Shown here: positions 129 to 12,608 of the stretch, piece after piece | Numbering within the stretch: the stretch's first letter is position 1 | How the letters are laid out: each line of letters starts with the position of its first letter | Program-made: the position numbers and the translations under genes | Notes under the pieces: model-generated | The model's input: only the letters and a program-made list of their open reading frames with translations | Told to the model about the DNA's origin: nothing | The model's database searches: none | NCBI GenBank assembly: GCA_003228405.1 | Contig: QIDK01000269.1 | Span: forward strand, 2,782-26,781 | Length of the DNA stretch: 24,000 bases | Origin: Gammaproteobacteria bacterium | GTDB taxonomy: Bacteria > Pseudomonadota > Gammaproteobacteria > SZUA-229 | Direction of reading: 5' to 3'

Positions 129-1040
129 TTAAAAATAATCTTCTGCACTGATCTGTAGAGCCCGGGCTTTTTGTATAGCCAGCGTATTGAGCAATATAAA
201 TTCATGCTGCGTTTCACTGGACGCTAAAACATCTGCAACAAGCTGTTTATGTAATTCGCTATTAAAGGTTAAACGTGCATAATATTCTGCGTATAGAACT
301 TTAGCCATCAGATTTTTACCGTCTGTTAGTCTTATGGCCGCTTCAAAGTGCATTTTACCCTGCTCAGGTTTCCCGCCTAAAGTTGCAGGTAATAAACTGT
401 TGAGTACACCCAGGTACATATGTGCACCGGCATTATCCCAGGTTTCATCTTTGCTTATGACGGTTTGCATGATTAATTTAATCTGTGGTAACTGAGCCAG
501 TGCATTCCAGTCATCACTATTTACCTGAAGCCATGATGCCCAGCTTATTCCCAGGCTATAGAGCATGTCTATATCATCTTCATCAACGGACTGCAGGCGG
601 GCAACAAATTCTGCATATTGAATAGTGGTTAAATTACACAGATTATCATCATATAGGCAAATGGCTTTAGCGGCACGGCTTAGGGCTTTCTCACTTAATT
701 TTTTTTGCTGGCGGCTGATGATGTTTCGTTGATAGTTATATTGCTCACCCTCTAATTCAACTGACATTAACTCCTGTTGCGTCGCCAACAGTGCCCCATA
801 GGCATTCATTAGTCTGGAAGATGCGATCAGCAAAGCCTCATCCTCAGGGTCGCTCTCAATTAAGGCGTCCAGTAATACCAGATAAGCAGGCAAAGCCTGG
901 AGTACAGTCTGTGGGTCATTATTCGCCCTGACTACTTTATTCAGGTTCTCCGAGAAAGAGCTAACAGAAAATGAGCAAGCCATTAATAGCAGAGGGATAG
1001 AAATCAATAGCAGGAATATGCTAAGTCTTTGTTTCATCAA
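129..1040 (-). CDS. TatT-like (TRAP-transporter-associated) helical-repeat lipoprotein
   Basis: 303-aa ORF. The N-terminus MMKQRLSIFLLLISIPLLLMAC carries a lipobox (LLMA|C). The remainder looks all-helical and TPR-like, with segments (LPAYLVLLDALIESDPEDEALL, AKVLYAEYYARL) that match my recollection of the TatT family. Adjacency to a DctP-like gene supports the call. The family assignment is from memory, not from a search. Confidence 0.55.
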   Translation of the reverse strand: MMKQRLSIFLLLISIPLLLMACSFSVSSFSENLNKVVRANNDPQTVLQALPAYLVLLDALIESDPEDEALLIASSRLMNAYGALLATQQELMSVELEGEQYNYQRNIISRQQKKLSEKALSRAAKAICLYDDNLCNLTTIQYAEFVARLQSVDEDDIDMLYSLGISWASWLQVNSDDWNALAQLPQIKLIMQTVISKDETWDNAGAHMYLGVLNSLLPATLGGKPEQGKMHFEAAIRLTDGKNLMAKVLYAEYYARLTFNSELHKQLVADVLASSETQHEFILLNTLAIQKARALQISAEDYF

Positions 1041-1327
1041 TATTGAGTCAGTTTTCAGCGTTTTGTGAATGGGCTAATCTGGAATACCGGAATTATACCT
1101 GTATTTTGCAGGCATGTTCTTAAAATTGTGTGTTTAAACGTTGATGTGTCGTCTCCTGCTTACTTTACCCGGTGGTTAAAGGGAATGGGCTCTTGATTCA
1201 GGCACAATTATCCTGCCACAGAGGCGCCGAGAACTCAGGGTAACAACCTGGCGTGGCATGCACCCTGAAGCAACTGCATTTTCTGCGTACTCTGTGTCTC
1301 TGTGGCGGTTTTTGATTTAAACTAGTC

Positions 1328-1355
1328 TTAAGTATTAAGTATTAAGTATTAAGTG
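1328..1355. repeat. Heptanucleotide microsatellite: (TTAAGTA)x3 followed by TTAAGTG
   Basis: Read directly from the sequence: ttaagta ttaagta ttaagta ttaagtg. It is intergenic and lies just after the T-run at 1309..1313. Confidence 0.9.
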
Positions 1356-1418
1356 TCATTTGACGCAGATACTTTTTGAACCTGGTTATTGAGCAAGTAA
1401 AGCAAATGGTCCGGGGTG

Positions 1419-1427
1419 TTATACACA
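1419..1427 (+). promoter_or_regulatory. DnaA-box-like 9-mer TTATACACA (one mismatch to TTATCCACA; identical to E. coli oriC box R2)
   Basis: Direct sequence match in the ORF-free region upstream of priA. Confidence 0.4.
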
Positions 1428-1597
1428 ATCCTTGCAAACAGCTGTATTTATTTGCTTATTTTTTGATCAAATGCGGAATAGTTAATTTAACTCTTTGTTT
1501 CATATAGTTTTTATTGGGAGGTTAAAGAGTGATCAGGTGCTAAAAATGTGCATAAACAAAGGTTTTCAGGACATTATTCCAACTGTTTTCAACAGAC

Positions 1598-1606
1598 TTA
1601 TCCACA
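1598..1606 (+). promoter_or_regulatory. Perfect consensus DnaA box TTATCCACA
   Basis: Direct sequence match (acTTATCCACAgat). Confidence 0.5.
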
Positions 1607-1930
1607 GATTGAGCGAGTGCGTTACATTTCTAACGTTTTCAAGGAGTTAAGAGGCGATTGATAATATAGAACTTTAAGTTTATATGCTAAATTTACTTAT
1701 TTATAGGCCTGATATTATGAAAATATACTCTGGACAGAGCATTGAAGCGAATACTTATGCACATCATGATGGTGATATTTCAATAGTATGACAGAAAGAC
1801 TGTATATATAGCATTTAATCAGTAGCGCACTCGTAACCAACTGAATTATATGAATTTTTTGAGTGGTTAAAATTTAAGCAATTTAGCGGAAGTAACGCTG
1901 GAGCAATGAATTTATATACTTAATGTCATG

Positions 1931-1965
1931 TTTTCCACAGAGTTATCCACAGCTTTTGTGGAAAA
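1931..1965. promoter_or_regulatory. Compact cluster of three DnaA boxes: TTTTCCACA (1931..1939, +), TTATCCACA (1943..1951, +) and TGTGGAAAA (1957..1965, an inverted TTTTCCACA)
   Basis: Direct read of tgTTTTCCACAgagTTATCCACAgctttTGTGGAAAAatc. It holds one perfect and two one-mismatch boxes within 35 bp, two direct and one inverted, 84..118 bp upstream of the likely priA ATG at 2049. Confidence 0.6.
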
Positions 1966-2048
1966 ATCGATATGCTGCCACCTGAGTGCATTTTTTGAAG
2001 TTTATTACAAGTCTCCAATTTGCATCCATTCACTGGCACAATACCCCT

Positions 2049-4268
2049 ATGACCCACCCAATTATCATTCAGATTGCTGTGCCAGTTCCACTGTACGGTC
2101 TTTTTGATTATCTGCTGCCGGCTTCCGCTGAGCATATTCCTGTTAAAGGCTGCCGTGTTCAGGTGTCATTTGGTCGAAAGCAGCTAGTGGGCATGGTTAT
2201 TTCAGTAGGTAGTAACTCCAGCTTTCCACTGTCTAAACTGAAGCCGATTTCCGAGCTTATTGATATTGAGCCGGTTTTACCCGACGACTTAATTAAGCTG
2301 CTGGAATGGGCCGCCAGTTATTACCACCACCCTCTGGGGGATGTTATTTTTAGTGCCCTGCCTAAACAGCTTAGATCAGGGGCCGCAGCAGAGCTGAAAT
2401 GTGAAACCCATTGGGCCTTAACCGAGATGGGTCGGCAGACTGACTCCTGCTCACTAAAGCGGTCACCAAAGCAGGCGGCACTTCTCAGCTATTTGCAGAA
2501 TATGCCTGAAACAGAGCTGACGGCCAGCCAGTTAAATACAAACTGGAATAACTGGCGATCCCCCATGCGTGCACTGGTGGAAAAATCACTACTGGTGGCC
2601 ACAGAAAAAACTCAAACGGCAACCATTTCTGAATATTCACCAAATACCACTCAAAAATCGCCGAAGTTTCAGCTGAACCAACAACAGGCCGATGCAGCTA
2701 ATGACGTCATTCAGGCTCTGGGGCATTACCAGACCTTTTTATTACAGGGCATTACCGGCAGTGGCAAAACAGAAGTGTATCTGCAGGTTATAGAATCTGC
2801 GCTGGCAACAAATTTACAGGTGCTCGTGCTGGTGCCAGAAATCAGTTTAACGCCGCAGCTAACCCGTCGCTTTAGTGAGCGTCTACATGTGCCCATTGCC
2901 AGCCTGCACTCCGGCCTGAATGACACTCAGCGACACAGTGGCTGGGTACAGGCCAGTAAAGGGCTTGCACGGGTGGTAATTGGTACTCGCTCAGCACTTT
3001 TTACGCCTCTGCCCGAGCTGGGTTTAATTATTCTAGATGAAGAACACGATGCATCTTTTAAGCAGCAGGAAGGTTTTCGCTACCATGCAAGAGACCTGGC
3101 ACTGGTACGCGCGAGAAATAAAAATATTCCTGTGTTGTTAGGTTCGGCCACGCCCTGTTTTGAAAGCCTGGAAAATGTATACCGCGATCAATATAGATTG
3201 CTGCAATTAACACGCCGGGGAGCGACTGGAGCACAGCCGCCCAAAGTCAGTTTACTGGATGTGTGCCGTCAGCCAATGGAAGATGGTATATCGGAACTTT
3301 TACTAAAAAAAATAGAAGAGCATCTGCAGAATAAGGGGCAGGTGCTGCTGTTTTTAAACCGGCGGGGTTATGCGCCGTTATTGATGTGTCATGAATGTGG
3401 CTGGACCACGGTCTGTCACCGATGTGATGCGAATCTGACATTGCATCAACATAATAAGCGTTTGCGTTGTCACCATTGTGGCTATGAAAAGGCTGCACCG
3501 GTGCAGTGCCCGCAATGCCAGCATGAAAGTTTAATACTGCCAGGGGCCGGAACGGAGCGTATAGAGCTTGCGCTAACAGAAAAGTTTCCTGCGCTGGTGA
3601 TCAGCCGCATAGATCGAGATACCACCCGCCGCAAAGGTGAGCTGGATAAAAAATTAAATCAGGCAAGAACCGGTGAAGCACAAATTTTAATTGGCACGCA
3701 AATGCTGGCCAAGGGCCATGACTTTCCGAATGTCACGCTGGTGGGCATACTCAATGCAGATCAGGGGCTATTCAGTGCGGATTTCCGTGGCACAGAGCAT
3801 ATGGCACAACAAATTATTCAGGTGTCAGGTCGCGCCGGGCGAGGTGAAAGAGCCGGAGAGGTGATTATTCAAACCCATCACCCCGAGCATCCCTTGCTAC
3901 ACACATTACTTCACACAGGCTATGCAGGCTTTGCAAAACAGGCTTTAGAAGAAAGAAGGCTGGCCAGCTTTCCGCCCTATAGTTATATGGTAATTGTGCG
4001 CTGTGATGCCATACAAAAAGAACACGGTCAGGTATTTTTGCATGAATGCCAGCAGGCATTTACTTACCAGGGTATACAGTTGTTCGGGCCTCTACCGGCA
4101 CCCATGGAGCGCCGCGCCGGGCGCTATCGCTGGCAGCTGATTTTAATATCAGATGAACGTAAAAAATTACACGGCGCTTTGGGGCAATGGGTACCGGCAA
4201 TGAGCAAAATGAAAAGTGCAAATAAAGTTCGCTGGTCGATTGATATTGATCCGCAGGATATGTTTTAG
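2049..4268 (+). CDS. priA: Primosomal replication-restart helicase PriA
   Basis: From ATG 2049 the protein begins MTHPIIIQIAVPVPLYGLFDYLLP, which parallels the E. coli PriA N-terminus. It has Walker A GITGSGKTEVY, the DEEH box (ILDEEHD) and the PriA-specific Cys-rich zinc region CHECGWTTVCHRCDANLTLHQHNKRLRCHHCGYEKAAPVQCPQCQ. The track ORF starts at GTG 1986, but those extra 21 residues have no PriA counterpart. Confidence 0.95.
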   Translation: MTHPIIIQIAVPVPLYGLFDYLLPASAEHIPVKGCRVQVSFGRKQLVGMVISVGSNSSFPLSKLKPISELIDIEPVLPDDLIKLLEWAASYYHHPLGDVIFSALPKQLRSGAAAELKCETHWALTEMGRQTDSCSLKRSPKQAALLSYLQNMPETELTASQLNTNWNNWRSPMRALVEKSLLVATEKTQTATISEYSPNTTQKSPKFQLNQQQADAANDVIQALGHYQTFLLQGITGSGKTEVYLQVIESALATNLQVLVLVPEISLTPQLTRRFSERLHVPIASLHSGLNDTQRHSGWVQASKGLARVVIGTRSALFTPLPELGLIILDEEHDASFKQQEGFRYHARDLALVRARNKNIPVLLGSATPCFESLENVYRDQYRLLQLTRRGATGAQPPKVSLLDVCRQPMEDGISELLLKKIEEHLQNKGQVLLFLNRRGYAPLLMCHECGWTTVCHRCDANLTLHQHNKRLRCHHCGYEKAAPVQCPQCQHESLILPGAGTERIELALTEKFPALVISRIDRDTTRRKGELDKKLNQARTGEAQILIGTQMLAKGHDFPNVTLVGILNADQGLFSADFRGTEHMAQQIIQVSGRAGRGERAGEVIIQTHHPEHPLLHTLLHTGYAGFAKQALEERRLASFPPYSYMVIVRCDAIQKEHGQVFLHECQQAFTYQGIQLFGPLPAPMERRAGRYRWQLILISDERKKLHGALGQWVPAMSKMKSANKVRWSIDIDPQDMF

Positions 4269-4665
4269 TTAAAGCCATTTTGTCCCTGAGCTAATCCCTC
4301 GAAATTCACTGAAAGTCAAAAGCATTTTTACCGCAAATAAACGTAAATCACGCTAATTTATGTTTGTACGCCAGTTTTGTACAGGGCAGGCAAGCACCCT
4401 AATTTTATGCCCGGTACAATTTTCAGGGCGCTCAGCGCCTTTAATATATAACGTTTGTTATTTGCATATTTTGCGTTTTTTGCTGTAAAAATGTGTTTAT
4501 CTCTGGATTTTAAAATACCAGCAATTCATTAAAACCACGAAATAGTTCACCTGGGCAGAAATATAAAAAATAAACTGTAAGGAATTGCTGTCAGTGGCGA
4601 CTACCTGTTGTGTCTACTCAAAAACTCAGTTACATGCGTAGTTTACTTTAACCCGGGAGAAAAAT

Positions 4666-4971
4666 ATGAACTCATTCACAATTACAAAAAAACTTGCTGT
4701 GGCTACTGCAGCCGCATTTATATTAAGTGTCAGCAGTGGCATTGTAGCGGCGACTAATATCAATCCGTTTGGAATGACTGATCTGAGTCAGTCCTATCAG
4801 CTTGCCGGAAAAGAAGGTAAATGCGGTGAAGGTAAATGTGGTGGTAGCAAGCCTGACGCATCAAAGGGCAAAAGTGGTGAAGGCAAGTGTGGTGGCGGTA
4901 AAGATAAAGCAACAAAGGAAAATGCAGATAAAGCCAGTTCAAAAGGGTCAGTCAGTAAGTGCGGGGGTTAA
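4666..4971 (+). CDS. hvfA: Secreted Cys-repeat peptide, HvfA/bufferin-type RiPP metallophore precursor-like (GKCG repeats)
   Basis: 101 aa with a Sec signal peptide (..SSGIVAA|TN) and then NPFGMTDLSQSYQL. The core is Gly/Lys-rich with four Cys, each in a K-C-G context: KEGKCGEGKCGGSK, SGEGKCGGGK and SVSKCGG at the C-terminus. A good Shine-Dalgarno (gggaga) lies 8 nt upstream. The EGKCG repeat pattern is the hallmark of the HvfA family as I recall it. Confidence 0.7.
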   Translation: MNSFTITKKLAVATAAAFILSVSSGIVAATNINPFGMTDLSQSYQLAGKEGKCGEGKCGGSKPDASKGKSGEGKCGGGKDKATKENADKASSKGSVSKCGG

Positions 4972-5083
4972 TATATAGCCGCTAAAAATATATATACCTA
5001 TATAAACCGGCGACAACAATAATCCTTTCATATTTGTCTGCTAACGACTACCTTATTAGTAACTTCTATTGTAGAGCAGATGA

Positions 5084-5688
5084 ATGGGCAAAAATTCAGT
5101 TCGCCATAAGCATGATAAAGGACAGCCACAGGAAGGCATTGCCAGTCAGCTGGGTAGCATGCGTGAAGAAATGCTGCGTTTTGCCACACTTCAGCTACGC
5201 GATACCATTGTGGCTGAAGATGTCGTCCATGAAGCCATTAATGCCGCCCTGGTGCCCGATCGTTATTCAGGGAAGGGCAGCCTGAAAAGCTGGGTGTTTG
5301 CCATATTACGGAATAAGATTATTGATGTTATTCGTGAACGCAGTCGTCATCCGACTGAGCAGTTTACTGAAGACGATGGAAGTGATCTGAATGAGCCGTT
5401 TAATCAGAAAGGCGCCTGGAAACAGACCCAGAAACCGCTAACTGGGGACATCCAGAAGCATTTCTGGCGAATGAACAGTTCTGGATTATTTTTGAGATTT
5501 GCATTAATAAGCTACCGCAGAATACGGCACAGGTATTTATGATGCGCGAGCACCTTGGGCTTGAACTTAAGGAAATATGTAACGAGCTTAATCTTAGTGA
5601 GAGTAATGCCTGGGTCATTATGCATCGGGCACGGGCGCAATTGCGCAAATGTCTGGAAAAGAATTTTATTCATGGAGCACAGTTATAA
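5084..5688 (+). pseudogene. ECF-type sigma-70 family RNA polymerase sigma factor, interrupted by a frameshift (apparent 1-nt deletion or 2-nt insertion near 5437..5445)
   Basis: The frame starting at 5084 encodes region 2 (EDVVHEAINAAL, SLKSWVFAILRNKIIDVIRE) and then runs into nonsense (..GDIQKHFWRMNSSGLFLRFALISYRRIRHRYL*). The frame open from 5404 reads ..NWGHPEAFLANEQFWIIFEICINKLPQNTAQVFMMREHLGLELKEICNELNLSESNAWVIMHRARAQLRKCLEKNFIHGAQL* (stop 5686..5688). That is a clean region 4 with its helix-turn-helix. Both frames are open across 5404..5542. Confidence 0.8.
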
Positions 5689-5861
5689 TGATGAATTGTA
5701 AGCATGCGAGCCAGTTAATTTCCCGCTCACAGGATCAAAAACTAACACTAAAAGAGCGCATTTATTTAAAGTTTCATTTAGTCATGTGTTCCGGTTGCAC
5801 TAACTATAGAAAACAGATGGAATATATTCGTAAGGCAATGCAGCAGCTTAGAGAGTGGTGA
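5688..5861 (+). CDS. Small zinc-binding (ZAS, zf-HC2) anti-sigma factor
   Basis: Its ATG overlaps the sigma stop codon (TAATG at 5686..5690). The 57-aa product is MMNCKHASQLISRSQDQKLTLKERIYLKFHLVMCSGCTNYRKQMEYIRKAMQQLREW. It carries the H-x3-C-x2-C ZAS motif (HLVMCSGC) plus an N-terminal Cys/His, and has no TM segment. The track ORF start at 5649 lies inside the sigma reading frame and is less likely. Confidence 0.7.
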   Translation: MMNCKHASQLISRSQDQKLTLKERIYLKFHLVMCSGCTNYRKQMEYIRKAMQQLREW

Positions 5862-5868
5862 TATTTAT

Positions 5869-6316
5869 ATGTCTGATCTGCAACGAAAATTTAAAGCCTA
5901 TTATTTTACCGCCGTTTTCAGCATGATATTTGCGGTAACAGGTTTTAGTTACAACGCCTGGCGCATGGAGGTTAGCGAAGCTAACAATAATATACGCACG
6001 GCTTCATAATATACGCACGGCTTCATTCGAAGTTTTAACTGAACTGGCTGAATTGCAACAGCTTATTTATGCAGCACATTATGATCAGGATATGGTTGCA
6101 GGCAATCCCCGCACAGGCTGGGTTAAGGTTGGGCTTATTGTCGATCTTAGTGCGCTCATTAGTGAGCCGGTGTCAGCAAAGGCATTACAGTTAAAGAAAA
6201 CATGGGCCGCTAACTGGGGCAATATGCAGAGCAGCAGGCAGGCCACTGATTTACTTGTAAATGGGATTGATGCGGTGCGGGTGGAAATAAAACAGTCACT
6301 AAAAAATCTTGAATAA
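5869..6316 (+). pseudogene. Single-pass membrane protein of unknown function, disrupted by a 19-bp tandem duplication
   Basis: ATG 5869 gives MSDLQRKFKAYYFTAVFSMIFAVTGFSYNAWRMEVSEANNNIRTAS and then a stop at 6007..6009, inside the second repeat copy. Removing one 19-bp copy joins it in frame to FEVLTELAELQQLIYAAHYDQDMV...KQSLKNLE*, which is the track ORF 6053..6316. The restored protein is about 142 aa with one N-terminal TM helix. Confidence 0.7.
5987..6024. repeat. Perfect 19-bp direct tandem duplication (ATAATATACGCACGGCTTC x2)
   Basis: Positions 5987..6005 and 6006..6024 are identical. The match continues 2 nt further (AT) after each copy. Confidence 0.95.
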
Positions 6317-6333
6317 ACAAATAATATAAAAAT

Positions 6334-6909
6334 ATGATTGATTATTTACTAAACCTGTCAACCCAACCAGCATGGATATTTCTAGCCATCATACTATCTT
6401 CCTATCTACTGGAAGACGTGGCGATTATTTCAGCCGCGGTTATGGCGGCCGATCAGATGATTTCCGTGCAGCTGGCTGTTTACGCAATTCTTATCGGTAT
6501 TATCAGTGGCGATATCGGTCTGTATTTACTGGGTTACCTGTTGAAAAAACATTCTGTATTTCAACAGTGGTTAGTGAAGAAAAATCGTCAGCAACATTAT
6601 GCGACCCTGTTTGGGCATAATCTGATTAAAAATATTCTGCTAATTCGCTTTGTGCCAGGTTTGCGCTTTGTTTGCTACACATCCTGTGGCCTGTTCAGGG
6701 CACATTTTGGACAGTTTATTATAGCTGTGACTGTTGCGGGAGTTATCTGGGTGTTTGCTGTGTTTACTCTGATATACCAGTTAGGAAGCAGTATATGGTT
6801 AGAGCATAGCGACTGGAAATGGATATTGATTCCTGTGGTGCTAATGCTGTTAGTCGGTACTAATCGACAAATCATGCGGCGTATACAACTGCAGGAAAAA
6901 CAAATATGA
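6334..6909 (+). CDS. DedA / VTT (SNARE-associated) family inner-membrane protein
   Basis: 191 aa and polytopic. It has the DedA-type segments LLEDVAIISAAVMAA and LIRFVPGLRFVCYTSCG (an R-x-x-P-x-x-R...G motif). Its stop overlaps the next gene's start (ATGA at 6906..6909). Confidence 0.7.
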   Translation: MIDYLLNLSTQPAWIFLAIILSSYLLEDVAIISAAVMAADQMISVQLAVYAILIGIISGDIGLYLLGYLLKKHSVFQQWLVKKNRQQHYATLFGHNLIKNILLIRFVPGLRFVCYTSCGLFRAHFGQFIIAVTVAGVIWVFAVFTLIYQLGSSIWLEHSDWKWILIPVVLMLLVGTNRQIMRRIQLQEKQI

Positions 6910-8030
6910 CGCAGCCACTAAAATCAATTCAGGAAGTGCATCGTGGTATGCCAGAACTGACAACGACTACTAAAAAGAGTACATCGTTTTTTGAATTCTG
7001 GCCGAGTCACATTATTTACCTGCCCATTGTAATACAATGGCTATACCTGGCTTTGCGCTATCGTAGTTTGACCTTGCCGTTAATTTCCAATCCAGGGATA
7101 TATCTTGGCGGCATGGTCGGCGAGTCCAAATCAGCAGTACTGGCATTAGCCGGTAAAAAAGCGGCTGAGCACGTGGCGCCTTATATATCTATTTTTAATG
7201 ATAAATTTAAGTCAATTGATATCCGCCTGGGAGAATCAATAGATAAAATGAAGGCAGCCAGACTCAAATTTCCAGTTATTGCCAAACCAGATATGGGATG
7301 TCGAGGGGCAGGCGTAAAAATAATTGCTGATGAGGAGGCGCTAAGAAATTATATTCAGGAATTTCCAGATAAGGCGACTTTACTGTTACAGCAAAAAATC
7401 CCCTATGAAGCAGAAGCGGGTATTTTTTATATTCGTCACCCGGATAGACAGCAGGGAGAAATATTTTCAATGACACTGAAATATGCACCCTATGTAAGCG
7501 GAGATGGAAAACGTAGTTTGCGTCAGTTGATAAAGGATGACCAGCGCGCAGCTAAAATTTCCAGTCTCTATTTTAGCCGACATCAGAATAAGCTGAACAA
7601 TATAATTCCTGAGAACCGTGCCTTCCGACTAGCTTTTGCCGGAAGCCACTGCAAAGGCAGCATATTTAGAAATGGTAACACTTACATCACTGAAAAGCTG
7701 CGGCAGAAGTTTGATGATATCAGTAACGATATAGATGGTTTTTATTATGGGCGTTTTGATGTGCGCTTTGAAAGCATAGAAAAATTGATGCAGGGTGAAA
7801 ATTTTCACATTCTTGAAATCAATGGCGCCAGTTCAGAGGCCGCCCATATCTGGGATGTGAATACAAGTTTTAATGAAGTATATAGAACTCTGTTTTATCA
7901 ATATCGTACCTTATTTTATATAGGTAATATAAATCGTCACGCAGGTTACAAACCACCGCCGATCTGGCAATTGTATAACGCCTGGCGGCAGGAAAAAAAA
8001 CTTGTTAATCAATATCCAGCTACGGACTAG
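6906..8030 (+). CDS. Membrane-anchored ATP-grasp family carboxylate-amine ligase (D-Ala-D-Ala ligase/RimK-like fold); substrate unknown
   Basis: 374 aa. There is an N-terminal hydrophobic helix (FFEFWPSHIIYLPIVIQWLYLALRY). ATP-grasp signatures follow: FPVIAKPDMGCRGAGVKII, LLLQQKIPYEAEAGIFYI and the C-terminal FHILEINGASSEAAHIWD. Confidence 0.7.
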   Translation: MTQPLKSIQEVHRGMPELTTTTKKSTSFFEFWPSHIIYLPIVIQWLYLALRYRSLTLPLISNPGIYLGGMVGESKSAVLALAGKKAAEHVAPYISIFNDKFKSIDIRLGESIDKMKAARLKFPVIAKPDMGCRGAGVKIIADEEALRNYIQEFPDKATLLLQQKIPYEAEAGIFYIRHPDRQQGEIFSMTLKYAPYVSGDGKRSLRQLIKDDQRAAKISSLYFSRHQNKLNNIIPENRAFRLAFAGSHCKGSIFRNGNTYITEKLRQKFDDISNDIDGFYYGRFDVRFESIEKLMQGENFHILEINGASSEAAHIWDVNTSFNEVYRTLFYQYRTLFYIGNINRHAGYKPPPIWQLYNAWRQEKKLVNQYPATD

Positions 8031-8035
8031 ACTCT

Positions 8036-9802
8036 ATGAAATCACAGGCCACCCCCTTTCAGTTAGGTGTTGCAGAAAATAGTGCAGTTTACTGGCACTG
8101 GCTGGCACATGTCAGTGAGAGCCTGCTTGGTCTGAGTGAACTAGACGCCTATTATCGGCAGCGGCAAAGCAATATGAGTAGCCGCGAATTCTTACGCTAC
8201 ACACTGGAAAAACTCGATGTTAATTACACAGTTGCCAGTGGAAATTGTCAGCAGATACCCGGCGAAGGTACGACTATTGTTGTCGCTAATCACCCCTATG
8301 GTGCTATAGAAGGCGTTATGCTGGCAGAACTTCTTCTCACGCGCAGAAGTGATGTGAAGGTGCTGGCGAATCATTATCTGCAACGTATTGATGAACTATC
8401 CGAGTTATTTATTGGTGTTGATGTGTTTGAGAATAACCGCTCAAAAAAATCAAATTCCCATGGCGTCAAACAGGCATTGAATCATTTAAAAAAGGGCGGA
8501 CTATTGCTGGTATTTCCTGCTGGAGAAGTCTCCAGTTTTAATTTTAAAAATAGAAAAATTACGGACAGGAAATGGAACCGGATTATCGGTATGCTGGCTC
8601 GTAAAACCTGTGCCTGCACCACACCGGTTTATATTGAAGGCCATAATAGTAGATGGTTCCATTTTGCAGGTTTGTTACATCCACGCTTACGAACATTATT
8701 GCTGGTTAGAGAAATGCTCAATAAACGGCAGAAGATCGTTAATTTACATATTGGAGAGACCATTCCCCATGACGAACTAAAAACGCTTTCATCAGATGAA
8801 GATATTACCGATTATTTTCGGCTGAATACCTATTTGCTGATTAACCAGGCAAAAAATAAATCTGCTATAGTCAAAAAAAATAAGCGATCAATGCAAACTA
8901 TCGCCCCGGCCGTTGAAAAACAAAAACTACAAAATGATATAGATGCGTTGGGCGCTGATACATTACTATTAACCAGGGATATTTTTTCAGTGTATTGCAC
9001 TACAGCGCAGCAGTTGCCCAATGTGTTACAGGAAATTGGGCGTTTACGGGAAATAACCTTCCGCCAGGTGGCTGAAGGAACGGGCTTTGCGCAAGATCTG
9101 GATGACTATGATAATCATTATTTACATATGTTTATCTGGAACAGCGAACAGCAGGAAATTGTTGGAGCCTATCGGCTGGGTCTGGTGGATAAACTGGTTA
9201 AAAAATCTGGCCTGAAAGCCCTCTACAGTCGAAGTCTGTTTCGTTATGAGAAAACATTTGTGGATGATCTGGGAATGTCAATTGAAATGGGGCGCTCGTT
9301 TATTCGCGTGGAATATCAGCGTAGTTTGAGCGCGCTACTGCTCTTATGGAAGGGTATTAGCACCTTTGTGTCACGCAATCCACAATATACGACACTATTT
9401 GGCCCGGTCAGTATCAGTAGTGGCTATTCAGAGTTATCGCGTCATCTTATGACGCAGTTCCTGCAGTTGCATCACTATGACCCTGTGCGGGCAAAAATGG
9501 TGAAAGCAAGCAGCCCACAGAAAAAATTACCGGATATTATCTGGAGCAGAAAAATACTCGAGAGACTAAAAGATAATCAGTTGATTTCCAGACTGATTTA
9601 TCGCATGGAAGGCGATAAGGGCCTGCCCATAATACTCAAACAATACCTGGGCCTGAATGGTAAACTGGTTAGTTTTAATCTAGACAGAAAATTTAACAAT
9701 ACATTAGATGGAATGATCATAGTAGATCTGCTGAAAGTCTCAGAAAAATTACTCGGCAAATATATGGGCAAAGAAAACGCAAACAACTATTTAAACAGGT
9801 AA
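8036..9802 (+). CDS. OlsF-like bifunctional acyltransferase: an N-terminal PlsC-type (lysolipid O-acyl) domain fused to a C-terminal OlsB/COG3176-type GNAT N-acyltransferase
   Basis: 588 aa. The N-terminal domain has VVANHPYGAIEG (an HX4E variant of the HX4D acyltransferase motif) and LLLVFPAGEVS (FPxG motif). The C-terminal domain has LREITFRQVAEGTGFAQDLDDYDNHYLHMFIW..IVGAYRLG, typical of the putative-hemolysin/OlsB-like GNATs. The domain order matches OlsF-type aminolipid synthases. Confidence 0.7.
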   Translation: MKSQATPFQLGVAENSAVYWHWLAHVSESLLGLSELDAYYRQRQSNMSSREFLRYTLEKLDVNYTVASGNCQQIPGEGTTIVVANHPYGAIEGVMLAELLLTRRSDVKVLANHYLQRIDELSELFIGVDVFENNRSKKSNSHGVKQALNHLKKGGLLLVFPAGEVSSFNFKNRKITDRKWNRIIGMLARKTCACTTPVYIEGHNSRWFHFAGLLHPRLRTLLLVREMLNKRQKIVNLHIGETIPHDELKTLSSDEDITDYFRLNTYLLINQAKNKSAIVKKNKRSMQTIAPAVEKQKLQNDIDALGADTLLLTRDIFSVYCTTAQQLPNVLQEIGRLREITFRQVAEGTGFAQDLDDYDNHYLHMFIWNSEQQEIVGAYRLGLVDKLVKKSGLKALYSRSLFRYEKTFVDDLGMSIEMGRSFIRVEYQRSLSALLLLWKGISTFVSRNPQYTTLFGPVSISSGYSELSRHLMTQFLQLHHYDPVRAKMVKASSPQKKLPDIIWSRKILERLKDNQLISRLIYRMEGDKGLPIILKQYLGLNGKLVSFNLDRKFNNTLDGMIIVDLLKVSEKLLGKYMGKENANNYLNR

Positions 9803-9806
9803 TTAT

Positions 9807-10343
9807 ATGCATGATGTTATAAAAGGTTGTATAGAAACTCTGGATCAGGCTGAGAAGTTTCTTAATTCTGTTAGTGATGAAGCGTATATAAAAATTGTTA
9901 AGCCATTTTTTATCAGCTCATCAGGTGAGCACATGAGGCATATTATGGACCATTTCCAGGAGCTTAAAAAAAGCTGGCAAAGCGGTATTATAGATTTTAA
10001 CAATCGAAGACGGGGCAGCCGCATTGAACAGAGTAGAAAATTAGCACTAGTACAGATTGAAGAAATAAAACAATGGCTTTCAAAACTGGATGAGAATGAA
10101 TTAAATCAGCCTCTATCGATTAAAACAGAGGTGGCAATATCAGAAACCCTGATAGTTGAAGTGACATCAACGCTGGCTCGTGAACTGGTGTTTGCCTCCA
10201 GCCATGCAGTGCACCATTATTCGAGCATAGCAACGGCGATACAGATGCAGGAAGTTATATTAGATAAAAACTTCGGTATTGCACCTGCCACAGCAACTTA
10301 TTTACGTAGTGGCGATGAATCATGTGTACGCTCACCTGGTTAA
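9807..10343 (+). CDS. DinB-superfamily (four-helix-bundle, His-triad metal-binding) protein
   Basis: 178 aa. His-rich motifs sit at the positions expected for DinB-like proteins: SGEHMRHIMDHF near the N-terminus and ASSHAVHHYS near the C-terminus. It starts 4 nt after the acyltransferase stop. Confidence 0.5.
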   Translation: MHDVIKGCIETLDQAEKFLNSVSDEAYIKIVKPFFISSSGEHMRHIMDHFQELKKSWQSGIIDFNNRRRGSRIEQSRKLALVQIEEIKQWLSKLDENELNQPLSIKTEVAISETLIVEVTSTLARELVFASSHAVHHYSSIATAIQMQEVILDKNFGIAPATATYLRSGDESCVRSPG

Positions 10344-11056
10344 TTCACAAAAAGGGTTACGAGGTTTTTTTTAATCGTGATGAGCAGCTCAGTCGACCCA
10401 GAGCAACCCCTCCCTGCTTCGCTATAAACACAAAGAGCATCATGCCGGTAGACCCACAGTCTAAAGGCACATGGATTGCGGTTAATAGTTGCGGCGTAAG
10501 CCTGTGTTTACTCAATAATTATCAGGCATATTCAGACGAAAAAACAGTGACAAAAAATAATGAAAATTACACCAGCCGTGGCCTGATAATACCGGCTTTA
10601 TTGCAACTACAAACCAGTGATCATATTTATCATAAGCTTAAAAAAATAAACCTGGTAAAGTATTTGCCGTTTTCACTATGTGTCTTTTCGGCTAACTTAA
10701 ATACCCACACGACAGAAATTACTATTTATCAATGGGACGGTATTAAGCTAAGCCAACTGGCTGCAGATCAGCCCGTGGTTTCATCGGCAGTTTTGCTGAC
10801 TGAAGTGAAGCAACAACGCAGTGATTTATTTAATCAAGTGACTAAGCAGAATGCCAATTCTAAAGATCACTTAGCGTACCATTCATCTCACAAACCGGAA
10901 AAAGGTAAATACTCTGTGTGCATGCATCGACAAGATGCATGCACACAGAGCTTAAGTCACATCAGTGTTAATAACAGCATTGTGTTTCGTTATCATGATG
11001 GCCCACCATGTGAAGATGAGCACTGGTCAGAAACAAAGATGGAAAAATCAGTCTGA
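10322..11056 (+). CDS. NRDE-family (TANGO2-like, Ntn-hydrolase-fold) protein
   Basis: 244 aa. It begins MCTLTW, so Cys2 is the predicted N-terminal nucleophile. The eponymous NRDE motif is at residues 18..21 (FFNRDEQLSRP). The start overlaps the DinB-like ORF by 22 nt. Confidence 0.65.
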   Translation: MCTLTWLIHKKGYEVFFNRDEQLSRPRATPPCFAINTKSIMPVDPQSKGTWIAVNSCGVSLCLLNNYQAYSDEKTVTKNNENYTSRGLIIPALLQLQTSDHIYHKLKKINLVKYLPFSLCVFSANLNTHTTEITIYQWDGIKLSQLAADQPVVSSAVLLTEVKQQRSDLFNQVTKQNANSKDHLAYHSSHKPEKGKYSVCMHRQDACTQSLSHISVNNSIVFRYHDGPPCEDEHWSETKMEKSV

Positions 11057-11284
11057 CTAATGTTTTTTATCTTTCATCATAAAAAATATTTTTATAAGTA
11101 ACAAAATCAGCGCAATGCCATGCAAAAACAGATCAAAGATATCAATCGGCCTGCTGAGGCTGTCATTAAATAGCATTCTTAGTTTCTGCAACAAATGAGG
11201 CTCTGATACGAAAGGAGCCAGTGCCAGAATAATAGCGATAATAGCCAGGGTAGGAGTTGGGATATAACTCAGGAATTTTCTCAT
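11057..11284 (-). CDS. Small two-helix membrane protein of unknown function
   Basis: 75 aa: MRKFLSYIPTPTLAIIAIILALAPFVSEPHLLQKLRMLFNDSLSRPIDIFDLFLHGIALILLLIKIFFMMKDKKH. It has two hydrophobic helices, and APF..EPHL..KL.ML resembles a conserved small-protein family I recall seeing in proteobacteria. Its stop codon directly abuts the NRDE stop. Confidence 0.5.
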   Translation of the reverse strand: MRKFLSYIPTPTLAIIAIILALAPFVSEPHLLQKLRMLFNDSLSRPIDIFDLFLHGIALILLLIKIFFMMKDKKH

Positions 11285-11600: not shown

Positions 11601-12608
11601 ATGACCACAGGTATGAAGTTAAAGCAGTTTTTGCTGCATGCAAAGCGCGCGGGTGTTGACCTGCCTTATGATCTTATTGAGTTGATTCACGAAGTGACAA
11701 TCACCTGCAAGGAGATTGCAACCATTGTAAACCGGGGCGAGCTTTCAGGTGTTTTAGGTGTTGCCGGCTCTGAAAATGTACAGGGTGAAACCCAGAAAGA
11801 GCTGGATATCATCACCAATGATATTATGGCTGATCACCTGAGTCTGAGCGGTCTGGTCGCGGGCATGGGTTCTGAAGAAGTCGATGACCCGATTGATGTG
11901 CCTGCACAGGAACGGGGTGAATATCTGCTAATGTTTGACCCGCTCGATGGCTCTTCTAATATTGACGTTAATATTTCAGTCGGCACTATTTTTTCAGTTA
12001 TGAAAGCCCCCATGGGTTGCAAGGAAACGCCTAAACTGAATGATTATCTGCAAAACGGTACGCAGCAGAAAGCGGCGGGGTTTGTAGTGTACGGCCCTTC
12101 AACTGTGCTGGTACTGACCACCGGTCAGGGGGTAAACATGTTTACCCTGGATAATTCAATTGGTGAGTTTGTATTAACCAGCGAAGGCGTGCAAATTCCA
12201 GAAGAAACCACCGAGTATGCGATCAATATGGCCAACCGCCGCTTCTGGGATGAGCCGATGAAGCAATACATCGAAGACTGTCAGATGGGCGAAGATGGCC
12301 CATTAGGCAAACGCTACAATATGCGCTGGGTAGCTTCAATGGTGGCTGAGGTATATCGTATTCTGATACGCGGTGGTATTTTTATGTATCCCTATGATAA
12401 TCGTGATCCCTCAAAAGCCGGCAAGTTGCGCTTAATGTATGAAGCCAATCCAATGGGTTTTATTATAGAACAGGCAGGGGGCATGGCCTCAACCGGGCAT
12501 GGTCGTATTATGGAAGTAGAATCAACGGGTTTGCATCAGCGTGTGCCGGTGGTATTAGGTTCGGCTAAGGAAGTGGCAAAGGTTGAGGAATATCACCAGA
12601 AAGTTTAA
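11601..12608 (+). CDS. fbp: Fructose-1,6-bisphosphatase, class 1
   Basis: 335 aa with class-1 FBPase signatures: GSENVQGETQKELDIITND, FDPLDGSSNIDVNISVGTIFS and GKLRLMYEANPMGFIIEQAGG. A Shine-Dalgarno (ggag) lies upstream. Confidence 0.95.
   Translation: MTTGMKLKQFLLHAKRAGVDLPYDLIELIHEVTITCKEIATIVNRGELSGVLGVAGSENVQGETQKELDIITNDIMADHLSLSGLVAGMGSEEVDDPIDVPAQERGEYLLMFDPLDGSSNIDVNISVGTIFSVMKAPMGCKETPKLNDYLQNGTQQKAAGFVVYGPSTVLVLTTGQGVNMFTLDNSIGEFVLTSEGVQIPEETTEYAINMANRRFWDEPMKQYIEDCQMGEDGPLGKRYNMRWVASMVAEVYRILIRGGIFMYPYDNRDPSKAGKLRLMYEANPMGFIIEQAGGMASTGHGRIMEVESTGLHQRVPVVLGSAKEVAKVEEYHQKV

Follow-up and report, generated by a model that had tools for sequence, protein, structure and literature searches.

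An HvfA-family precursor peptide without maturation enzymes in a reduced, damaged sigmaE/MseR-type operon: a probable relic

Oxazolins and bufferins form a large and recently recognised class of copper-binding peptides, in which, according to the literature, the precursor and its iron enzyme are nearly inseparable. Two described systems come closest to the locus studied here. The first is the hvf cluster of Haemophilus influenzae, whose precursor HvfA (Buf_EGKCG) contains 8 Cys, the maximum for the family being 58 (PMC11252979; PMC12452194). Precursors in genomes devoid of any MNIO are on record too: a published survey found them in 67 of 2583 complete genomes and left open the modification and the function of such peptides (PMC12452194). 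The second system is the sigmaE operon of Neisseria meningitidis (NMB2140-NMB2145). Its anti-sigma factor MseR (NMB2145) is characterised by Cys4, His30, Cys34 and Cys37, and its promoter (GTAAGGTT, a spacer of 12-13 nt, CGTCTAA) drives the sigma operon and msrAB only (PMC2893595).

The window, i.e. the whole stretch of DNA analysed here, comprises 24,000 nucleotides and belongs to a draft assembly of 3.09 Mb in 283 contigs, 90.6% complete (G000; the other G numbers stand for the genomes compared with it). The features that matter for the argument are the following.

4269-11056, + strand: strain-specific insert of 6.8 kb, holding the peptide operon and a DedA/ATP-grasp/OlsF/DinB/NRDE operon, defined by congener synteny, DNA homology and GC
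4577-4603, + strand: ECF (sigmaE-type) promoter motif, GTAAGGAAT, 11-nt spacer, GCGACTA
4666-4971, + strand: precursor gene of the HvfA/oxazolin family, 101 aa, above the NF050137 cut-off
5084-5439, + strand: ECF sigma factor, N-terminal part (region 2), first frame, aligning to residues 1-113 of an intact orthologue
5437-5688, + strand: ECF sigma factor, C-terminal part (region 4), second frame, residues 114-196 of the orthologue, 75% identity
5688-5861, + strand: MseR-like ZAS anti-sigma factor, 57 aa from the ATG at 5688, NF052368 at 71.5 bits (cut-off 50)
5869-6316, + strand: orfX, gene for a protein of about 141 aa with a membrane anchor, now in two pieces (5869-6009 and 6053-6316); a single ORF in G013
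5987-6024, + strand: perfect tandem duplication of 19 bp, throwing orfX out of frame (Tandem Repeats Finder: period 19, 2.1 copies, 100% match)

ORF 4666-4971 truly belongs to the HvfA/oxazolin (EGKCG-repeat) family of precursor genes. The sequence-only reading had described a 101-aa ORF with four Cys in KCG contexts and a terminal KCGG, and its translation agrees with that description. The N-terminus (residues 1-29) is made of a basic n-region with KK and a hydrophobic h-region up to VAA, just before TN, as in all orthologues; by eye, it is a putative Sec signal. An NPFGMTDL motif follows, and then a core rich in Lys and Gly with one full double repeat and two single KCG units, in which all four Cys lie within KCG and the last residues are KCGG. 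Alignment of the orthologues reveals a KSG in place of the expected KCG in one repeat, i.e. a Cys-to-Ser change, and a stretch of 20 residues devoid of Cys before the terminal KCGG. The peptide has 4 Cys as against 5-9 in its 13 orthologues, with which it has in common the putative signal, the NPFGM leader and the terminal KCGG. An HMM search had been proposed as a check on membership of the HvfA family. When this was carried out, the repeat model of the family, NF050137 (KCGExKCG_twice), matched residues 50-77 with 27.8 bits (cut-off 19.5, E = 1.5e-6), and a six-frame search of the whole genome with the same model recovered the precursor at 30.2 bits. The HvfA equivalog model NF050188 gave 34.9 bits, below its cut-off of 95; a Pfam scan of the precursor matched no model, and a search for a second contig encoding an identical peptide found none. 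The window peptide resembles the H. influenzae HvfA in its Sec-type signal (putative here), in the shortness of its N-terminal region, in having repeats of the EGKCG type and in matching NF050137; unlike HvfA, it has 4 Cys instead of 8, does not reach NF050188 and lacks the two N-terminal disulfide Cys.

When the 220 nt that precede the peptide gene were aligned across 14 orthologous loci, a single conserved block emerged, TGTAAGGAAT, about 11 variable bases and GCGACTAC, situated 60-90 nt before the start codon in all 14. The exact pattern occurs once in the window's own genome, at 4577-4603, and a search tolerating one mismatch per half added a single near-match with two mismatches, on contig C45. 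Among 12 genomes of the genus, it is present once in each of the three that bear the sigma gene (G000, G003 and G006) and in none of the nine others. On the evidence of this conserved motif, the peptide gene is the predicted first gene of an autoregulated operon of the sigmaE/MseR type. The resemblance to Neisseria extends from the end of the operon, where an ECF sigma factor is encoded together with a small ZAS anti-sigma factor of the cytoplasmic kind that has Cys4, His30, Cys34 and Cys37 at identical positions, to the promoter (GTAAGG..., a spacer of about 12 nt, CG.CTA) and to a predicted regulon of very small size. That an ECF/ZAS pair lies beside the precursor as in Neisseria had been noted in the sequence-only reading; it is borne out by the NF052368 score of 71.5 bits and by a layout that matches the published one (PMC2893595). 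There are also differences: the window sigma gene is frameshifted, the genes found in Neisseria between the first gene and sigma are absent, and the second copy of the promoter, which in Neisseria precedes msrAB, was not found in the window's genome. Tandem repeats stand just upstream of the sigmaE-type promoter in two genomes of genus g10, with GTAACTT units in one (locus L047) and ACGACTT units in the other (L053).

The sigma gene (5084-5688) is split by a deletion of 1 nt near 5437-5440, as read in one draft assembly. TIGR02943 and related models match the first part only, with profile positions ending at about 107-139, while the region-4 sequence is carried by the stop-to-stop frame 5404-5688. 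Alignment with 14 orthologues places the deletion between the codons of ...TQKP and (A)NWGHPE..., with well-conserved sequence on both flanks. The window locus has no intact ECF sigma gene with regions 2 and 4 in one frame; the called product has 152 aa and PF04542 is the sole domain recorded for it. By comparison, all of the 119 other homologues listed are single-protein sigma factors, most of them of about 190-235 aa with both sigma domains, and the nearest sigma among the matches listed, from 5.8 billion proteins, is 74% identical. A tblastn search of the window's genome for a paralogous sigma factor of the sigmaE/MseR-operon type found none. The anti-sigma gene, whose ATG at 5688 overlaps the sigma stop codon by one base, appears intact; counted from that ATG, its product has Cys4, His30, Cys34 and Cys37, that is an H-x3-C-x2-C ZAS motif and an N-terminal Cys. 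In one relative, G024 (L049, at about 5798-6530), no stop codon separates the sigma frame from the anti-sigma sequence, so that the two may form a fusion ORF; a search reported one internal TAG within the G024 sigma match.

As judged from these sequences, the peptide is most likely no longer induced, because its only recognisable promoter needs the frameshifted sigma factor and the genome holds no paralogue. The main rival reading, in which the peptide functions unmodified as one of the options of the sequence-only reading had it, is that the gene is still expressed and its product serves in the periplasm as a thiolate buffer for Cu(I) or oxidants, the frameshift being either an assembly error or bypassed by another promoter. 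The integrity of the peptide ORF, of its promoter and of the anti-sigma gene speaks for it, but in scans of 4200-6400 for sigma-70 promoters and terminators the matches were no commoner than expected from shuffled sequence, and the operon is broken at a second gene, orfX. We consider this reading possible, although rather unlikely; the chemical and comparative evidence that bears on it is given below.

The counterpart of orfX in G013 is one ORF of 141 aa, with a single N-terminal hydrophobic helix, which follows the anti-sigma gene (L044:4211-4636). Searches of orfX against Pfam and NCBIfam assigned it to no family. A remnant of orfX is found after the anti-sigma gene in G006, and G045 has a paralogue close to its Rnf-linked hvf cluster (L143:5937-6377). 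Eight other genes of the window, coding for PriA, FBPase, a Sel1-repeat protein, ferrochelatase, PntA, PntB, a TPR protein and phosphoglucomutase, match their Pfam models from end to end. These eight genes being whole, the damage is concentrated in the peptide cassette. OlsF also covers its model over its full length.

How the operon came to its present form can be approached through its relatives, since 15 orthologous peptide-sigma loci could be sorted into three types.

Type I, peptide-MNIO-DUF2063-HvfX-sigma-antisigma: G003 (same genus), G013, G014 and G043
Type II, peptide-HvfX-sigma-antisigma: G006 (same genus), G016, G020, G022, G024, G048, G073 and G076
Type III, peptide-sigma-antisigma: G045 and G056, with an intact sigma gene in both, and the window

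A partial copy at the start of a contig in G051 (DUF2063-HvfX-sigma-antisigma) is consistent with type I. The gene that lies between peptide and sigma in type II codes for a DoxX-like protein of the HvfX family (NF050144, 238 bits, cut-off 80). In the window, there is no such gene in the 112-bp spacer between the peptide and sigma genes, and the genome's only HvfX gene lies on contig C30, next to a different GKCG peptide. The likeness to the H. influenzae hvf cluster extends to relatives, where orthologues of the window peptide gene sit directly before the MNIO, DUF2063 and DoxX-like HvfX genes; the window's genome, unlike H. influenzae, is without HvfB and HvfC, and its operon without HvfX. 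A tree of the sigma factors, several forks of which are unresolved, has a clade of nine members (support 97/99) that includes the window and consists exclusively of types II and III. Within this clade, G006, G045 and genus g12 form a subgroup with the window (97/96). G056, of type III, is outside this subgroup, and therefore type III would have arisen at least twice. The two genomes that combine type III with an intact sigma gene belong to two other genera.

The sequence-only reading had noted that no DUF692 or DUF2063 partner lies in the window and had called for a search of the full genome. Six-frame HMM searches with PF05114 (MNIO/DUF692) and PF09836 (DUF2063) gave no match in the whole assembly, window included, nor did PF10048 (DUF2282) in this 90.6%-complete assembly, and when HvfB and HvfC from a relative in the same genus served as tblastn queries, noise alone was returned with E up to 10. 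In the absence of an MNIO in the genome, the peptide would not be convertible to the oxazolone/thioamide or thiooxazole form. Maturation in trans, one of the options raised earlier, is left unsupported, because MNIO, DUF2063 and DUF2282 are all missing from the assembly. It would require that an MNIO/DUF2063 pair be hidden in the unassembled 9% or so of a genome in 283 contigs. There are precedents for such a division, since G020, G022, G045, G048, G073 and G076 combine a sigma-linked operon of type II or III, without MNIO, with a second MNIO cluster elsewhere in the genome; an MNIO was found neither in G016 (97% complete) nor in G006, G024, G056 or the window's genome. As background, in 72 of 80 loci of other Pseudomonadota the MNIO gene comes immediately after the precursor. 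Against trans maturation stand the empty HMM and tblastn searches, which turned up not even a fragment, as well as the genome's own Rnf-linked hvf locus, which is assembled and ends at HvfX, whereas its counterpart in G045 goes on with MNIO-DUF2063. Moreover, seven of the 11 congeners are also without MNIO and DUF2063, two of them (G004 and G011) at 99% completeness. We therefore regard it as improbable that the peptide is matured in trans.

The window's genome encodes two further GKCG peptides, of 148 aa (contig C30) and 96 aa (contig C72). The former belongs to an Rnf-Nth-(139-aa protein)-peptide-HvfX locus (L058, 5000-20000). This Rnf-linked peptide, without MNIO, is kept at 11 same-genus loci, and at eight of these HvfX follows downstream. 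Eight relatives from the same genus, as well as G045, encode between the peptide and HvfX a membrane-anchored protein of about 495 aa that bears an FMN domain of the glutamate-synthase type (e.g. L032, L033, L035, L143). The MNIO survey makes no mention of this oxidoreductase (PMC12452194), which may represent an additional partner or else a substitute modifying enzyme. The C72 peptide (L025, 6078-6368), the third GKCG-type peptide of the genome, has 3 Cys, a His/Asp-rich spacer and no conserved neighbours. Met is a usual periplasmic ligand of Cu(I), and several peptides of MNIO-less genomes (G000 on C30; G004, L033; G006, L029; G023, L027) display single-Cys repeats with Met-containing spacers between them, such as KCGGDKKMEGK and CGDSMKK, instead of the double unit EGKCGEGKCG. 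The pattern does not hold throughout: it is missing from G009 and G011.

A GKCG peptide was present in all of the 24 family genomes sampled first and an MNIO in 12 of them; for the 11 congeners, the figures are 11 and 4. Of 81 family genomes, 63 match NF050137 and 61 have an MNIO, and at least 10 have the former and no MNIO, to be compared with the 67 out of 2583 of the literature. The seven congeners mentioned above keep their GKCG peptides in spite of lacking MNIO and DUF2063, most of them beside an HvfX gene; such peptides can therefore persist without the enzyme. The MNIOs of the other congeners were considered as enzymes acting on GKCG peptides and set aside: in G001 and G010 their genes adjoin small Cys-rich ORFs with signal peptides that, by eye, resemble precursors of the DUF2282/bufferin type.

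These counts add weight to the reading in which the window peptide functions unmodified, and so do the Rnf-linked peptide kept in the genus, mostly with HvfX downstream, and the peptide-sigma-antisigma layout with an intact sigma gene in G045 and G056. In vitro, unmodified HvfA does bind 2-3 Cu(I), but its affinity is low, since it does not compete with BCA for Cu(I) (PMC11252979). The window peptide has, besides, the fewest Cys of its group. A close published parallel is that of the stand-alone precursors (PMC12452194, Fig. 3, Table 3), which likewise have no linked MNIO gene and occur in genomes without any MNIO; what sets the window apart is that its history can be read from relatives as a stepwise loss from a sigma-linked cluster, and that it bears fresh inactivating lesions.

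The surroundings of the operon show that it lies in a larger inserted block. In G001, G002, G004, G009 and G011, only 46-166 bp separate priA from a 75-aa ORF encoded on the opposite strand, beyond which lies the FBPase gene; the window counterparts are at 11057-11284 (75-aa ORF) and 11601-12608 (FBPase). The gene order of G008 is identical, with priA and the ORF about 2 kb apart, and in the stretch of G007 that was fetched neither gene was found. The insert is absent from six congeners, DNA homology between the window and congeners ends at the stop codon of priA, and the GC content is 0.37-0.45 in the insert versus 0.47-0.50 in priA and the FBPase gene. The sequence-only reading had overlooked this strain-specific insertion, along with the split of the sigma gene and the absence of hvfX from the operon. 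Upstream of priA, about 1 kb (window 1040-1986) is without ORFs.

Since the lipid genes lie in the same inserted block, on the same strand and with short gaps, the peptide could have been captured as a substrate of the downstream ATP-grasp and acyltransferase enzymes, for crosslinking or lipidation. Such a capture by other enzymes, also put forward earlier, finds no support in the relatives: homologues of DedA, ATP-grasp and OlsF are near none of the 15 orthologous peptide-sigma loci, which indicates that the adjacency of peptide and lipid genes is a local accident and not a pathway. In addition, the downstream genes match the ornithine-lipid synthase OlsF (418 bits), and the broken orfX separates the peptide cassette from the lipid operon. 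We find capture very hard to believe.

The reading that we favour, with moderate confidence, and that the sequence-only reading had not considered, is that the peptide is an unmaturable and probably silent relic in a reduced, freshly damaged copy of the operon. The ancestral operon, still extant in relatives, would have contained the precursor, MNIO (HvfB), DUF2063 (HvfC) and DoxX-like HvfX genes followed by those for sigma and the ZAS anti-sigma factor. In the lineage of the window, hvfB and hvfC would have been lost first and hvfX next, and the remaining cassette would have ended up in the acquired 6.8-kb block, between priA and the small conserved ORF. With the loss of all MNIO systems from the genome, the peptide could no longer be matured. 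Two fresh lesions, the 1-nt frameshift in sigma and the 19-bp duplication in the last gene, both read in one draft assembly, would have followed, and the Cys repeats of the peptide, a recent evolutionary leftover, would already have started to erode. The order of the losses, the loss of expression and the loss of function are the points of this scenario that we infer; the data themselves establish to which family the peptide belongs, the homology of the operon, the conservation of the promoter motif, the lack of maturases in the assembly, the two lesions and the insertion.

Several observations run counter to a relic. Nothing is broken in the peptide ORF, the promoter motif, the leader, the terminal KCGG or the anti-sigma gene, so that either any decay set in very recently or selection still acts on the peptide. 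Furthermore, the minimal peptide-sigma-antisigma layout exists with an intact sigma gene in two other genera, and most congeners keep other GKCG peptides without MNIO, in most cases beside HvfX. A broader interpretation would give these facts more room: in the genus and in parts of the family, GKCG peptides would be independent of MNIO and act as unmodified periplasmic thiol buffers (some of them Met-rich) for Cu(I) or oxidants, usually with HvfX; peptide, sigmaE and MseR would make up a working stress module with the peptide as sole effector, of which the window would be a damaged or mis-assembled example. We advance it tentatively, as a doubtful proposition.

Because it is most likely a relic, the window locus by itself adds little to the chemistry of these peptides. 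Its interest lies in the family around it, which permits the loss of the enzyme to be traced step by step, and in which many genomes of good quality have peptides, mostly with a DoxX-like partner, without any enzyme. Two questions are thereby made testable, that of the function of unmodified EGKCG peptides and that of the role of HvfX/DoxX. The promoter and anti-sigma architecture of the Neisseria sigmaE/MseR system is, at the same time, extended to a distant gammaproteobacterial family.
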